A DNA stretch of 64,000 nt, from the NCBI RefSeq assembly GCF_056712565.1, contig NZ_CM160072.1. One strand, written 5' to 3'. A model generated the notes under the pieces. It was given only the letters and a program-made list of their open reading frames with translations, was not told where the DNA came from and made no database searches. Positions 51,181 to 62,003 of this stretch are shown here, piece by piece; the stretch's first letter is position 1, and each line of letters starts with the position of its first letter. The translations under genes and the position numbers were made by a program.

Positions 51181-51603
51181 ATGAACTCACTACGTTATTT
51201 TGATTTTGGCACTGCCCGCCCCGTTTTATTATTAATTGCCCGTATCGCCGTGGTCTTAATTTTCATTATTTTTGGTTTTCCCAAAATGATGGGCTTTGGC
51301 GGTACGGTCCAATATATGGCCTCGCTGGGCGCACCAATGCCGATGCTGGCAGCGATTATTGCGGTAGTTATGGAAGTGCCCGCCGCGATATTAATCGTGC
51401 TTGGCTTTTTCACCCGTCCGCTGGCGGTGCTGTTTATTTTCTACACGCTGGGTACGGCGGTGATTGGCCACCATTACTGGGATATGACCGGCGATGCGGT
51501 TGGGCCAAATATGATTAATTTCTGGAAGAATGTCAGTATCGCTGGCGCATTCCTGCTGTTGGCAATTACCGGGCCGGGGGCGATTTCTCTCGATCGGCGT
51601 TAG
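51181..51603 (+). CDS. yphA: DoxX-family inner membrane protein YphA
   Basis: 140 aa from [28 protein letters not shown]...; ATG at 51181 with AGGGATTGG RBS. The track ORF has a 15-codon extension. Confidence 0.85.
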
Positions 51604-51607
51604 GAAA

Positions 51608-51755
51608 GATGCCGGATGCGGCGTAAACGCCTTATCCGGCCTACCGCTCCAACACCGATTGTAGGCCTGATAAGACGCAGCAAGCGTCGCATCAGGCATC
51701 GTGCACCGAGTGCTACAAAATCGAAATTACCCCGTAGGCCTGTGCATCCGGCATT
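51608..51755. repeat. BIME with three REP units between yphA and yphB
   Basis: gccggatgcggcgtaaacgccttatccggcctac / tgtaggcctgataagacgcagcaagcgtcgcatcaggca / gtaggcctgtgcatccggca. Confidence 0.6.
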
Positions 51756-51762
51756 TTATAAA

Positions 51763-60400: not shown

Positions 60401-60692
60401 CTTCATTGTGATAAACAAAATCGCGCTGTTTCACTTTATCCCACGCGCGATGCACCCGACCGCCCAGTTCCGGCAGGATCATCACTTTGATGTAGTCGTT
60501 TTCCAGCCACACCGCCTGCCAGGATTTCAGGGTTTTCTGCTCGCTCAGCGTATCGGTCACGCCGTAGGGATAAACCGCGCCGGACGATCCCTGATAAACG
60601 CGATTTTCCAGGAACATGGGATGTATATCCTGCGGCCCGGTTTCATAGGTCGGGATCTCAACGCGCTCTTGCCACACTTTTACTGGAGTCAT
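57411..60692 (-). CDS. yphG: Large TPR-containing protein YphG
   Basis: 1093 aa from MTPVKVWQERVEIPTYETGPQD...; ATG at 60690-60692 with GAGGG RBS. The track ORF has a 31-codon extension. Confidence 0.8.
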   Translation of the reverse strand: MTPVKVWQERVEIPTYETGPQDIHPMFLENRVYQGSSGAVYPYGVTDTLSEQKTLKSWQAVWLENDYIKVMILPELGGRVHRAWDKVKQRDFVYHNEVIKPALVGLLGPWISGGIEFNWPQHHRPTTFMPVDFTLEAHDDGAQTVWVGETEPMHGLQVMTGFTLRPDRAALEIASRVYNGNATPRHFLWWANPAVKGGEGHQSVFPPDVTAVFDHGKRAVSAFPIATGTYYKVDYSAGVDISRYKNVPVPTSYMAEKSQYDFVGAWCHDEDGGLLHVANHHIAPGKKQWSWGHSEFGQAWDKSLTDNNGPYIELMTGIFADNQPDFTWLDAYEEKRFEQYFLPYHSLGMVQNASRDAVIKLQRSERGIEWGLYAISPLNGYRLAIREIGKCNALLDDAVALTPATAIQGVLHGINPERLTIELSDADGNIVLSYHEHQSQALPLPDVAKAPLAAQDITSTDEAWFIGQHLEQYHHASRSPFDYYLRGVALDPLDYRCNLALAMLEYNRADFPQAVAYATQALKRAHALNKNPQCGQASLIRASAYERQGQYQQAEEDFWRAVWSGNSKAGGYYGLARLAARNGNFDAGLDFCQQSLRACPTNQEVLCLHNLLLVLSGRQDNARLQREKLLRDYPLNATLWWLNWFDGRSESALVQWRGLCQGRDVNALMTAGQLINWGMPALAADMLNALDCQRTLPLYLQASLLPKAERGELVVKAIDAFPQFVRFPNTLEEVAALESIEECWFARHLLACFYYNKRSYGKAIALWQRCVEMSPEFADGWRGLAIHAWNKQHDYELAARYLDNAYQLAPQDARLLFERDLLDKLSGVTPEKRLARLENNLEIALKRDDMTAELLNLWHLTGQADKAADILATRKFHPWEGGEGKVTSQFILNQLLRAWQHLDAREPQQASELLHAALHYPENLSEGRLPGQTDNDIWFWQAVCANAQGDETEAMRCLRLAATGDRTINIHSYYNDQPVDYLFWQGMALRLLGEQHTAQQLFSEMKQWAKEMAKTSIEADFFAVSQPDLLSLYSDLQQQHKEKCLMVAMLAAAGLGEVAHYESARAELMAINPAWPKAALFTTVMPFIFSYVH

Positions 60693-60809
60693 GGTGCCCT
60701 CAATATTAACAAGACATACTGAATTAAAAGATTTGTGGCAGTGTATTGAACAATCTGGCAATGTTTTCGCGGAATAATCACGCAATTAACTAAACAAGGT
60801 TTAGTAAAG

Positions 60810-62003
60810 ATGAGAGCCTGCATTAACAATCAACAGATTCGCCACCATAACAAATGCGTGATTCTGGAACTGCTGTACCGGCAAAAGCGCGCCAATAAAT
60901 CAACGCTGGCCCGGCTGGCGCAAATTTCGATTCCGGCGGTCAGTAATATTTTGCAGGAACTGGAAAGCGAAAAACGGGTGGTGAATATCGACGATGAAAG
61001 CCAGACGCGCGGGCATAGTAGCGGTACATGGCTGATTGCGCCGGAAGGAGACTGGACGCTGTGCCTGAACGTGACGCCCACCAGCATTGAGTGTCAGGTC
61101 GCTAATGCCTGTTTAAGTCCGAAAGGCGAATTTGAGTATTTACAGATTGATGCACCGACGCCGCAGGCGCTGCTGTCCGAAATCGAAAAATGCTGGCATC
61201 GCCACCGTAAATTGTGGCCGGACCGCACCATCAATCTGGCTCTGGCAATCCACGGTCAGGTTGATCCAGTGACCGGCGTGTCGCAAACCATGCCGCAAGC
61301 GCCGTGGGCAACACCGATTGAGGTGAAGTACCTGCTGGAAGAGAAGCTGGGCATTCGGGTAATGGTCGATAATGACTGCGTGATGCTGGCGCTGGCGGAG
61401 AAATGGCAAAATAATTCACAAGTGCGTGATTTCTGCGTAATCAACGTTGATTACGGCATTGGCTCGTCGTTCGTGATTAACGAGCAAATTTATCGCGGCA
61501 GTTTGTATGGCAGTGGACAGATTGGTCACACCATCGTTAATCCGGATGGCGTCGTCTGCGACTGCGGGCGTTATGGCTGCCTGGAAACCGTCGCCTCGTT
61601 AAGCGCATTAAAAAAACAGGCGCGGGTATGGCTAAAATCACAACCGGTTAATACTCAGCTTGATCCTGAAAAATTGACTACCGCGCAGTTAATCGCTGCC
61701 TGGCAGAGTGGAGAACCGTGGATCACCAGTTGGGTTGACCACAGTGCCAACGCCATTGGTTTGAGTCTGTATAACTTCCTCAACATCCTCAATATTAATC
61801 AGATTTGGTTGTACGGTCGCAGTTGTGCCTTTGGTGAGAACTGGCTTAATACCATTATTCGCCAGACGGGATTTAACCCGTTCGACCGCGACGAAGGACC
61901 GAGCGTGAAAGCGACACAGATTGGCTTTGGGCAATTAAGCCGCGCACAACAGGTACTGGGAATTGGCTATTTGTATGTTGAGGCGCAGTTACGGCAGATT
62001 TGA
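60810..62003 (+). CDS. yphH: ROK-family regulator / sugar kinase homologue YphH
   Basis: 397 aa; N-terminal HTH, ROK core with the C.CG..GC zinc motif (CDCGRYGCLE). Confidence 0.85.
   Translation: MRACINNQQIRHHNKCVILELLYRQKRANKSTLARLAQISIPAVSNILQELESEKRVVNIDDESQTRGHSSGTWLIAPEGDWTLCLNVTPTSIECQVANACLSPKGEFEYLQIDAPTPQALLSEIEKCWHRHRKLWPDRTINLALAIHGQVDPVTGVSQTMPQAPWATPIEVKYLLEEKLGIRVMVDNDCVMLALAEKWQNNSQVRDFCVINVDYGIGSSFVINEQIYRGSLYGSGQIGHTIVNPDGVVCDCGRYGCLETVASLSALKKQARVWLKSQPVNTQLDPEKLTTAQLIAAWQSGEPWITSWVDHSANAIGLSLYNFLNILNINQIWLYGRSCAFGENWLNTIIRQTGFNPFDRDEGPSVKATQIGFGQLSRAQQVLGIGYLYVEAQLRQI

Follow-up and report, generated by a model that had tools for sequence, protein, structure and literature searches.

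We analyzed a stretch of 64,000 nucleotides from the RefSeq assembly GCF_056712565.1 (contig NZ_CM160072.1), hereafter called the window, and focused on the yph locus at positions 51181-62003. An earlier note, made from the sequence alone, had read this segment as a compact sugar or polyol utilisation locus of eight genes with a divergent ROK-family regulator. Our analysis upholds this reading of a ROK-associated uptake and conversion cluster. All eight protein families named in the note hold, each Pfam match being above the curated cut-off, and the open reading frame (ORF) map agrees base for base with the RefSeq annotation of an identical Escherichia coli genome. The segment comprises yphA / yphBCDEFG / yphH, flanked by hcaT and glyA, and is an annotated feature of the E. 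coli core genome (Table 1). Its 10,823 bases are 100% identical to those of E. coli ATCC 11775, S88, NU14, and other strains of phylogroup B2, and at least 80% of the region is found, at 95-100% identity, in 5369 of the 5426 complete E. coli genomes (99%). The intergenic gaps along yphGFEDCB are short (96, 22, 24, 32, and 11 nt). Hence, these genes make up one compact operon, divergent from yphH.

What was already known of the yph locus is its annotation and the structure of YphB. A search of the literature, in which subscription-only articles were out of reach, gave neither a substrate nor a function for the E. coli yph genes, in line with the earlier note, nor an assignment of the whole cluster. 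Mentions of yphG, in 13 papers, were as a polymerase chain reaction marker of Klebsiella or in gene lists. YphH has been named as the third, uncharacterized ROK repressor of E. coli (PMC4288165), and its function was still listed as unassigned in later work of 2016, 2018, and 2022 (among it PMC4797297 and PMC9308461). None of the eight Yph proteins reaches an equivalog cut-off of NCBIfam. The locus is among the last unexplained sugar loci of the best-studied bacterium, carried by nearly every E. coli. We add to this YphG as the conserved core, a putative mutarotase-derived domain, a module found across phyla, and candidate operators.

Table 1. Genes, protein domains, and candidate control elements of the yph locus (positions in the window; aa, amino acids; ABC, ATP-binding cassette; AF2, AlphaFold2; HTH, helix-turn-helix; MFE, minimum free energy; REP/BIME, repetitive extragenic palindrome/bacterial interspersed mosaic element)
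Feature	Position	Strand	Description
yphA	51181-51603	+	DoxX-family inner-membrane protein, 140 aa; Pfam DoxX PF07681, 70.6 bits (cut-off 23.6)
REP/BIME-type inverted-repeat cluster	51606-51757		five pairs, 14-17 nt, GCCGGATGCGGCG-type units; between convergent yphA and yphB
yphB	51763-52635	-	aldose-1-epimerase (mutarotase) family, 290 aa; Pfam Aldose_epim PF01263, 178.5 bits
yphC	52647-53741	-	zinc-dependent medium-chain dehydrogenase, polyol/threonine-dehydrogenase type, 364 aa; Pfam ADH_N and ADH_zinc_N
yphD	53774-54772	-	single permease of a CUT2 (ribose/arabinose-type) ABC importer; Pfam BPD_transp_2, 125 bits
yphE	54797-56308	-	fused double ATP-binding subunit, 503 aa; Pfam 2 x ABC_tran
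yphF	56331-57314	-	periplasmic sugar-binding protein; Pfam Peripla_BP_4, 114.7 bits
yphG-yphF spacer, GC-rich stem-loop	57358-57394	-	UUUGAGCGGCA-N5-UGCCGCUCA; MFE -22.5 kcal/mol, z = -2.1
O2, candidate operator	57399-57415		AGTTAAT-AGG-GTTTAGT (AGTTAATAGGGTTTAGT); overlaps the yphG stop codon, ~85 nt upstream of the yphF ATG
yphG	57411-60692	-	DUF5107 and TPR protein, 1093 aa from the annotated ATG
yphG, C-terminal TPR solenoid	57414-59315	-	residues ~460-1093, all-helical, 34 helices (AF2)
yphG, middle beta-sandwich	59388-59645	-	residues ~350-435; AF2 strands E357-E435
yphG, N-terminal DUF5107 domain	59658-60692	-	residues 1-345, aldose-1-epimerase fold, remodelled active site (predicted)
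yphG-yphH divergent control region	60693-60809		117 bp; with conserved blocks shared by 13 loci of Enterobacterales and Aeromonas
TCACGCAAT block next to O1	60778-60786		identical in 11 of 13 loci, TCACGCATT in the other two
O1, candidate operator	60789-60805		perfect palindrome ACTAAAC-AAG-GTTTAGT, 17 bp; 23 bp extended (60786-60808)
yphH	60810-62003	+	ROK-family transcription factor, 397 aa, N-terminal winged HTH; Pfam ROK PF00480, 114.6 bits (cut-off 22.9)

The earlier note had pointed to YphG as a large TPR protein that is unusual in a sugar operon. The large TPR protein is there, yet it is no peripheral oddity: it is the most conserved and system-defining component of the locus. The homology searches and structure prediction that had been proposed for it confirmed the TPR part and, beyond this, gave the N-terminal third of the protein an aldose-1-epimerase fold. 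The AlphaFold2 model, computed from an alignment of 98 sequences, has high confidence values (predicted local distance difference test, pLDDT, 95.5; predicted template modelling score, pTM, 0.92). DUF5107 (PF17128) matches residues 39-324 with 188.1 bits (cut-off 24.4), and the C-terminal part matches TPR_16 (1.4e-17) and other TPR models of Pfam. In Foldseek searches, the helical part retrieved TPR superhelices (OGT, Ctr9, Ski3, and designed TPRs), and the fold of the N-domain was closest to that of catalytic mutarotases. In the predicted model, this domain thus has the mutarotase fold. At the level of sequence families, YphG has no match to Pfam Aldose_epim (PF01263), nor did we find homology to the catalytic module of any glycoside hydrolase (GH) or polysaccharide lyase family of CAZy.

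A HMMER search of the full database with the N-terminal 499 residues of YphG retrieved 4,032 cluster representatives (at 50% identity), most of them of ~1,100 aa. Hence, the whole architecture is conserved and not just the N-domain. Overall identity between phyla is ~25-40% among the 98 aligned sequences, and numerous polar positions stand out. Invariant or near-invariant elements of the beta domain are WPQHHRP with H123, N179, N192, H215, D240, E313, and DNQPD (D321). The TPR part has the conserved motifs FHPWEGGEG, with E880, and YPENLGEG; W563 is invariant and R782, E818, R833, F876, E880, and G881 are conserved in at least 90% of the sequences. One relative has a crystal structure (PDB 5CD6, 580 aa), the structural-genomics 'TPR-domain containing protein' BDI_1685 of Parabacteroides distasonis, and it keeps H123, N192, H215, E313, and D321 of YphG.

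To relate these residues to mutarotases, we used a local hhalign comparison of YphG with 19 epimerases (probability 68%, 11% identity, low confidence). It places E313 opposite the catalytic base Glu (E253 of YphB), and the invariant N192 opposite the catalytic acid His (H148 of YphB, His170 of Lactococcus lactis GalM). YphG as a sequence homolog of YphB was an idea that we dropped: the first hhalign comparison was not significant and a broader profile gave a weak global alignment. YphG differs from GalM, from YihR of the sulfoquinovose cluster, and from YeaD in lacking an Aldose_epim match, with a weak profile-profile match; in having Asn at the catalytic-His position, according to this low-confidence alignment; and in being fused to a beta-sandwich and a 630-residue TPR solenoid with invariant acidic motifs. 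As the sequence-family test fails and the catalytic His has probably been lost, we do not class the N-domain as a mutarotase. We read it instead as a mutarotase-derived sugar site with altered chemistry, which would account for the presence of YphB, a conventional mutarotase, in the operon. YphG is a probable new sugar-converting enzyme, common to many gut and soil bacteria.

The annotated start of yphG, the ATG at 60692, is supported by the orthologs, since those of all phyla begin with M-x(2-4)-VKVW; the mechanical ORF runs 31 codons further upstream, to a TTG at 60785, through the O1 region. Some E. coli have altered alleles. In strain SCPM-O-B-8794 (L014, 2286-5657), yphG is split into 841 and 244 aa, and shortened products (P0007, P0033, P0028, P0047) include large clusters of 900 and 692 aa, with 1109 and 1402 members. 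These short products may be pseudogenes or contig-end fragments.

We then studied the genetic context of yphG in 96 loci, obtained from exact-protein look-ups and a scan of 100,044 species genomes, in which ORFs were called and compared with the Yph proteins, and the neighbouring genes were grouped into clusters. Sixteen are gamma-proteobacterial (Escherichia, Enterobacter, Klebsiella, Citrobacter, Hafnia, Serratia, Budvicia, Limnobaculum, Aeromonas, Photobacterium, and one AT-rich genome). A ROK gene adjoins yphG in all 16, and in 14 of them it lies immediately upstream in divergent orientation; 15 loci encode a YphB-type epimerase. The transporter varies: we found a sugar porter of the major facilitator superfamily (MFS) in 9 loci, YphFED in 6, a GPH permease in 2, and an AraF-type ABC transporter in 1, whose binding protein has 377 bits to an L-arabinose-binding protein. 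The K. oxytoca complex exemplifies this exchange (L005/L006 vs L012). A single chromosomal slot (glyA - DoxX - ROK - ... - hcaT-like) is occupied by either of two versions of the module, one with YphG, the ABC transporter, YphC, and YphB, the other with YphG, the MFS porter, and YphB, their YphG being respectively 74% and 54% identical to that of E. coli. By these gene comparisons, this is an allelic module replacement. The constant core in gamma-proteobacteria is a ROK regulator, YphG, a YphB-type mutarotase, and a monosaccharide transporter.

We compared this with 77 further loci, mostly of Bacteroidota and Firmicutes, where the YphG orthologs have ~40% identity and no signal peptide, i.e., they are cytoplasmic. 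The most frequent neighbour is a divergent AraC-family regulator (46 loci), followed by a sugar porter (36) and a GH2 protein of ~930 aa belonging to subfamily GH2_20 (31). GH36 is found in 7 loci, a GalM-type epimerase in 6, GH35 and GH97 in 5 each, and a DUF4432-type epimerase in 3. The GH2_20 neighbour resembles 8U01 (600 bits); Bacteroidota secrete it, and in Firmicutes it is cytoplasmic. The subfamily has been reported to act as beta-galactosidase (PMC12243196). Between Serratia and most Bacteroidota, the porters linked to YphG are 53-60% identical (42-48% for divergent copies), for only 40% identity to XylE and 33-34% to AraE and GalP among known carriers, and they form an orthogroup of their own. 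We had considered these MFS porters as orthologs of GalP or AraE, which would have been a clue to galactose or arabinose, and dropped the idea because all 40 are nearest to XylE. An AraF-like binding protein is also found in one Firmicute locus, which makes two lineages in total. Across phyla, the constant unit is a regulator, YphG, a monosaccharide-class transporter, and a mutarotase, and the ABC transporter and zinc dehydrogenase of E. coli are interchangeable accessories around the YphG core.

Some of these neighbourhoods have features of their own. In marine Flavobacteriia (L034, L042, L045, L064, L071, L080), we observed a fixed string of sulfatase - sugar porter - GDSL esterase - secreted GH2_20 - YphG - sulfatases - second GH2_20, which suggests the use of a sulfated, acetylated algal galactan-like polymer. 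In three loci of Lachnospiraceae and other Bacillota (L035, L068, L077), a cupin-like protein of 137-154 aa with a weak Ureidogly_lyase match is encoded directly 3' of YphG; it could be an accessory sugar isomerase. We also looked for a constant kinase, aldolase, or isomerase partner in the Firmicute loci. FGGY kinases, SDR, GFO/IDH/MocA, HAD, and other proteins occur there sporadically and without a pattern, and this candidate was rejected.

Distant relatives of YphG (~35% identity) carry signal peptides (L008 9001-12303; P0209, P0231, P0237, P0247, P0253, P0267, P0262, P0229). The gene of one is part of a SusC/SusD locus that also encodes two sulfatases, a GH16, and beta-helix proteins. Extra modules are present in P0262, which ends in a CBM9-like module, and in P0229, which has an endonuclease/exonuclease/phosphatase domain. 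These relatives raise the question of whether YphG might be a new carbohydrate-active hydrolase or lyase. Acidic residues of the beta domain and of the TPR part would then cleave an imported small glycoside, disaccharide, or anhydro or substituted sugar, YphB would mutarotate the freed sugar, and YphC would oxidise the aglycone or polyol. A mutarotase directly after a glycosidase is established operon logic (GalM after LacZ, YihR after YihQ). The secreted Bacteroidota relatives, with their SusC/SusD locus and CBM9-like fusion, would fit such an activity, as would the invariant acidic residues in both halves of YphG (E64, E116, D240, E313, D321, D325, E880) and the frequent proximity of GH2_20, GH35, GH36, and GH97 genes. 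DUF5107 has also been described, in the single mention that our literature search gave, as an unexplained marker of phagotrophic stramenopiles, among 'digestive' families (PMC8163842). However, all linked transporters are of monosaccharide class (CUT2 ABC, AraF-like binding proteins, XylE-like porters). The fold of YphG is nearest to mutarotases, with no glycosidase or lyase domain, and its helical part is a TPR superhelix rather than an (alpha/alpha)6 toroid. Three further loci with secreted relatives have mixed and uninformative contexts, unlike polysaccharide utilisation loci. We thus consider a hydrolase or lyase unlikely.

A broader proposal, which we put forward tentatively, is that the DUF5107-TPR proteins make up a large and undescribed enzyme family acting in the conversion of carbohydrates. 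Its cytoplasmic branch, with the dedicated porter orthogroup and a mutarotase, would be an unrecognised pathway for monosaccharides or small glycosides. The family would combine, on an aldose-1-epimerase fold, the change of the catalytic His to Asn with new invariant His, Asp, and Glu residues, the TPR cap providing catalytic or substrate-binding residues. It would extend over Enterobacterales, Vibrionaceae, Aeromonas, Bacteroidota, Firmicutes, and Bifidobacterium, and be tied in many of them to the breakdown of galactosides.

The two other enzymes of the E. coli operon are of more familiar types. The structure of YphB has been solved (PDB 3NRE; match to the 3nre_A sequence, E = 3.5e-199). Its residues H83, H148, D187, and E253 are invariant in 7 orthologs; the full catalytic His/His/Glu set is preserved, and YphB is a genuine mutarotase-family protein. 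YphC resembles polyol/threonine-type zinc dehydrogenases (Tdh, IolM, sorbitol and xylitol dehydrogenases, GatD) in having the two domains of medium-chain dehydrogenases/reductases (MDR) and, as read from the sequence, the ligands of a catalytic (GICGSD and GHEPCG) and a structural zinc (CxxCxxCx7C) and an NAD motif (GLGPVG...IIGVD). Its best PDB relatives are alcohol, xylitol, and threonine dehydrogenases. It differs from all these enzymes in being far under their equivalog cut-offs, the best NCBIfam models being Tdh (171 bits, cut-off 380) and IolM (169 bits, cut-off 450). Hence, their substrates cannot be transferred to YphC.

YphC is found solely with the YphFED version of the module (6 of 6 gamma-proteobacterial loci) and never with the MFS versions. 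A Dorea locus has a YphC-like gene (353 bits) in the vicinity of YphG, and two other Firmicutes have weaker matches there. This strict coupling, together with the NAD-type motif and the position of YphC in the polyol/sorbitol/xylitol/threonine dehydrogenase branch, would fit a route that starts from a polyol. After uptake through YphFED, the polyol would be oxidised by YphC to a ketose, which YphG would isomerise to a common aldose, and YphB would provide the anomer for a housekeeping kinase; in other species, the MFS versions would bring in the ketose or aldose itself. Polyol-binding proteins of the CUT2 class do exist. Yet the locus points to no particular polyol, YphF resembles, and weakly, sugar-binding rather than known polyol-binding proteins, and the position of yphC between the transporter genes and yphB is uninformative on the order of the steps. 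Such a route, which seems to us quite unlikely, is also a special case of the import and conversion system proposed below rather than a distinct one.

YphFED has the composition of a CUT2 monosaccharide ABC importer, with a predicted secreted Peripla_BP_4 protein, a double ATPase, and a BPD_transp_2 permease. The N-terminus of YphF (MPKKMTRTRNLLLMATLLGSALFARA, followed by SDKE) is a signal peptide. No subunit could be identified through NCBIfam with the Rbs, Ara, Xyl, Als, Mgl, Ytf, or Lsr transporters, all scores being below cut-off: the nearest models are RbsC and AraH for YphD, AraG for YphE (454 bits vs a cut-off of 689), and YphF scores at most 64 bits against equivalogs with cut-offs of 335 or more. 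The best PDB relative of YphF (5hsg, 91 bits) is an unliganded structural-genomics protein. The system is similar to rbsDACBK, araFGH, alsBACEK, and ytfQRT-yjfF in having the same three subunit types under a dedicated repressor, and to rbs in encoding an enzyme that converts ring forms or anomers (cf. RbsD). It differs from the rbs, ara, als, and ytf operons in having no kinase or known isomerase and, as constant partner, the 1,093-aa DUF5107-TPR protein, and from CUT2 operons in that elsewhere an MFS porter replaces the ABC transporter while the rest of the system is unchanged.

The divergent gene yphH encodes what its domains, zinc motif, and helix-turn-helix identify as a ROK-family DNA-binding regulator. 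The N-terminus is ~90 residues longer than in ROK kinases and gives weak matches to MarR (E = 3.4e-4) and HTH_24 in Pfam, at residues 16-54. In 7 orthologs, the motifs NDC, GQIGH, and CDCGRYGCLE are invariant, as are the zinc-motif residues H240, C250, C252, C257, and E259, so that the ROK zinc site and most sugar-contact residues are retained. All 7 orthologs have Gln (GQIGH or GQVGH) at residue 237 (~61518-61520), in place of the Glu that is part of the ROK sugar-contact motif 'ExGH'. Like NagC and Mlc of E. coli, XylR of Bacillus, and the ROK regulators of Thermotoga, YphH has an N-terminal HTH and a ROK domain with CxCGxxGCxE, and its gene is divergent from a sugar operon, with an AT-rich palindrome (23 bp extended) as candidate operator. 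It is neither NagC (110.6 bits vs a cut-off of 650) nor Mlc (109.1 vs 530) according to NCBIfam, its group is reported to lack the linker GR motif that these two use for operator recognition (PMC4288165), and the candidate half-site ACTWAAC is unlike NagC/Mlc sites.

Another explanation of YphG is that it is a non-catalytic, sugar-sensing scaffold whose mutarotase-like domain would bind the sugar and whose TPR part would bind YphH or the transporter, as an anti-repressor or assembly factor, by analogy with Mlc-PtsG and Gal3p-Gal80. TPR solenoids are classic modules of protein-protein interaction, yphG is always the first gene, beside the divergent regulator gene, the catalytic His of mutarotases is apparently lost in YphG, and the Glu of ExGH is invariably Gln in YphH. 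Against this, YphH itself keeps the zinc site and most sugar-contact residues of ROK proteins, homologs that are secreted or carry a CBM9-like or nuclease/phosphatase-like module cannot be cytoplasmic anti-repressors, and some 20 invariant or near-invariant charged and polar residues of the beta domain exceed what ligand sensing usually needs. Moreover, the regulator family changes with the phylum, from ROK in gamma-proteobacteria to AraC proteins with their own cupin sugar-binding domain, and hence the regulator is not the conserved partner of YphG. A scaffold is in our view very unlikely.

Two palindromes are sites at which YphH might act. O1 stops 4 nt short of the yphH ATG and is centred on the yphH Shine-Dalgarno sequence. 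It is the sole exact match in the window. Of the 16 gamma-proteobacterial loci scanned, 12 have it at the corresponding position; it was not found in the other 4 (L011, L020, L021, L022). The second site, O2, lies at the other end of yphG, and all five ABC-type loci have kept it there, among them those of E. albertii, Enterobacter, K. pasteurii, and Budvicia. The common pattern ASTWARBNNNGTTWART has these two sites in the window, where 0.01 would be expected by chance, and a single match in 1.37 Mb of unrelated loci. Being conserved and statistically unexpected, O1 and O2 are candidate operators of YphH. We also considered O1 as an RNA hairpin hiding the yphH Shine-Dalgarno sequence. In other genera, 5-7 of the 7 positions of the arms are complementary and there are no compensatory changes; in the absence of clean co-variation, a protein site is favoured over an RNA helix.

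O2 is followed by a conserved TAAT element, similar to a -10 box, then by the GC-rich hairpin, which is conserved in 4 of the 5 ABC-type loci, and by the yphF ribosome-binding site. The hairpin has no U-tract on either strand, and we dropped the idea of an intrinsic terminator. Its role could be to stabilise the 5' end of an internal transcript, or it could mark a site of processing. From this arrangement, we infer that O2 may control an internal promoter for the transporter genes, whose transcript would start with the stabilising hairpin.

Other blocks of the yphG-yphH spacer are conserved. A second GCACAAT-like copy lies ~11 bp upstream of the TCACGCAAT block, the yphG-sense strand has the tandem pair ATTGCGTGA / ATTGYGCA, also ~11 bp apart, and a GCAGTnTAnnnnAC-like block at ~60738-60752 is conserved between genera. 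The extra blocks (60730-60786) might be the site of a second regulator, of activator type. We rejected the TCACGCAAT block as a half-site of CRP, because the expected partner half-site fits in no species.

One might ask whether the locus is used at all, or is a cryptic and effectively silent remnant in E. coli. The searchable literature gave no phenotype, inducer, or regulon, no clear sigma-70 promoter was found in the control region, and yphG is truncated or split in some E. coli (841 + 244 aa; clusters of 900 and 692 aa). On the other hand, none of the eight ORFs is disrupted here, 99% of the complete E. coli genomes retain the locus, the palindromes and the spacer hairpin are conserved between genera, and many of the short yphG products may be contig-end fragments. 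In addition, the YphF protein rose 3- to 4.6-fold on levoglucosan compared with fructose in engineered E. coli (PMC8753852), and hence the operon can be expressed. We see a silent remnant as highly improbable. Levoglucosan itself was dropped as a candidate substrate: many unrelated sugar transporters rose alongside YphF, and we thus read the increase as relief of catabolite repression.

Taken as a whole, gene content, folds, conserved residues, conserved neighbourhoods, and conserved palindromes lead us to a proposal in which the repressor role of YphH, the catalytic role of YphG, the sequence of the reactions, and the kind of substrate are inferred. We propose, with a probability of roughly 0.45, that yph is a YphH-repressed and sugar-inducible system for the import and conversion of a free, monosaccharide-sized carbohydrate, in which YphG carries out the defining conversion. 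YphH, a ROK repressor with a sugar pocket, would bind O1 and O2 and be released by the incoming sugar or by its product. Periplasmic YphF would capture the sugar, and the permease YphD and the double ATPase YphE would import it. In the cytoplasm, YphG would perform the conversion that defines the pathway, without a nucleotide cofactor (an isomerisation, an epimerisation, or a change of ring form). For this it would use the epimerase-fold domain with the catalytic His replaced by Asn, clasped by the TPR solenoid with its invariant acidic motifs. YphB, the conventional mutarotase, would supply or remove the required anomer, and the NAD-dependent YphC would add one redox step in the YphFED version, e.g., on an imported polyol or keto form. 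Housekeeping pathways would take over the product, which must be a common sugar, since genes for a kinase, an aldolase, or a known type of isomerase are missing from the locus.

The substrate of such a system is probably a free, monosaccharide-sized sugar. The galactosidase neighbours and the AraF-like binding proteins suggest one of galacto or arabino configuration. This class is tentative, because the XylE-like porters do not support it.

Several observations weigh against the import and conversion system as we propose it. The clues to the substrate conflict, since the linked MFS porters are nearest to XylE and YphF resembles no liganded binding protein. The replacement of the catalytic His by Asn in YphG comes from a low-confidence profile alignment (68%, 11% identity), and the first, narrower comparison of YphG with epimerases by hhalign was not significant (probability 2.5%). 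The Firmicute neighbourhoods of YphG are heterogeneous. Secreted relatives, one bearing a CBM9-like module, are easier to reconcile with an enzyme whose substrates are glycans than with one that takes a free monosaccharide. As for regulation, O1 overlaps the yphH ribosome-binding site, hence part of its conservation could reflect translation signals, and a consensus promoter scan of the yphG-yphH control region gave no convincing sigma-70 promoter.

These results shift the question from the cargo of an ABC transporter to the reaction of a protein of 1,100 residues made of a mutarotase fold and TPR repeats. Its relevance goes beyond E. coli, since YphG lies next to galactosidases and a dedicated porter in gut Bacteroides, Lachnospiraceae, and Bifidobacterium and in marine flavobacteria. 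If YphG is an enzyme, it would represent a new catalytic use of the mutarotase fold and of TPR repeats, it would fill a gap in the maps of carbohydrate utilisation by gut bacteria, and the third ROK regulator of E. coli would gain a regulon and an operator. If the substrate is an ordinary sugar that is handled redundantly, the value of these results would be one of routine annotation.

The remaining gene of the segment, yphA, is linked to the locus in several Enterobacterales, with a varying position. A DoxX gene is directly downstream of yphH in Klebsiella and Enterobacter Ag1, and a DoxX gene is two genes away in Limnobaculum and Budvicia. The mechanical yphA ORF reaches a GTG at 51136, the annotated start being at 51181. 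Between yphA and yphB, the REP/BIME-type cluster (51606-51757) is the exact point where the gene order departs from that of Klebsiella, in which yphA is downstream of yphH. Matches of the 10.8-kb query numbered 131,899 in the E. coli genomes (median per genome, 22), probably because this dispersed type of repeat is included in it.

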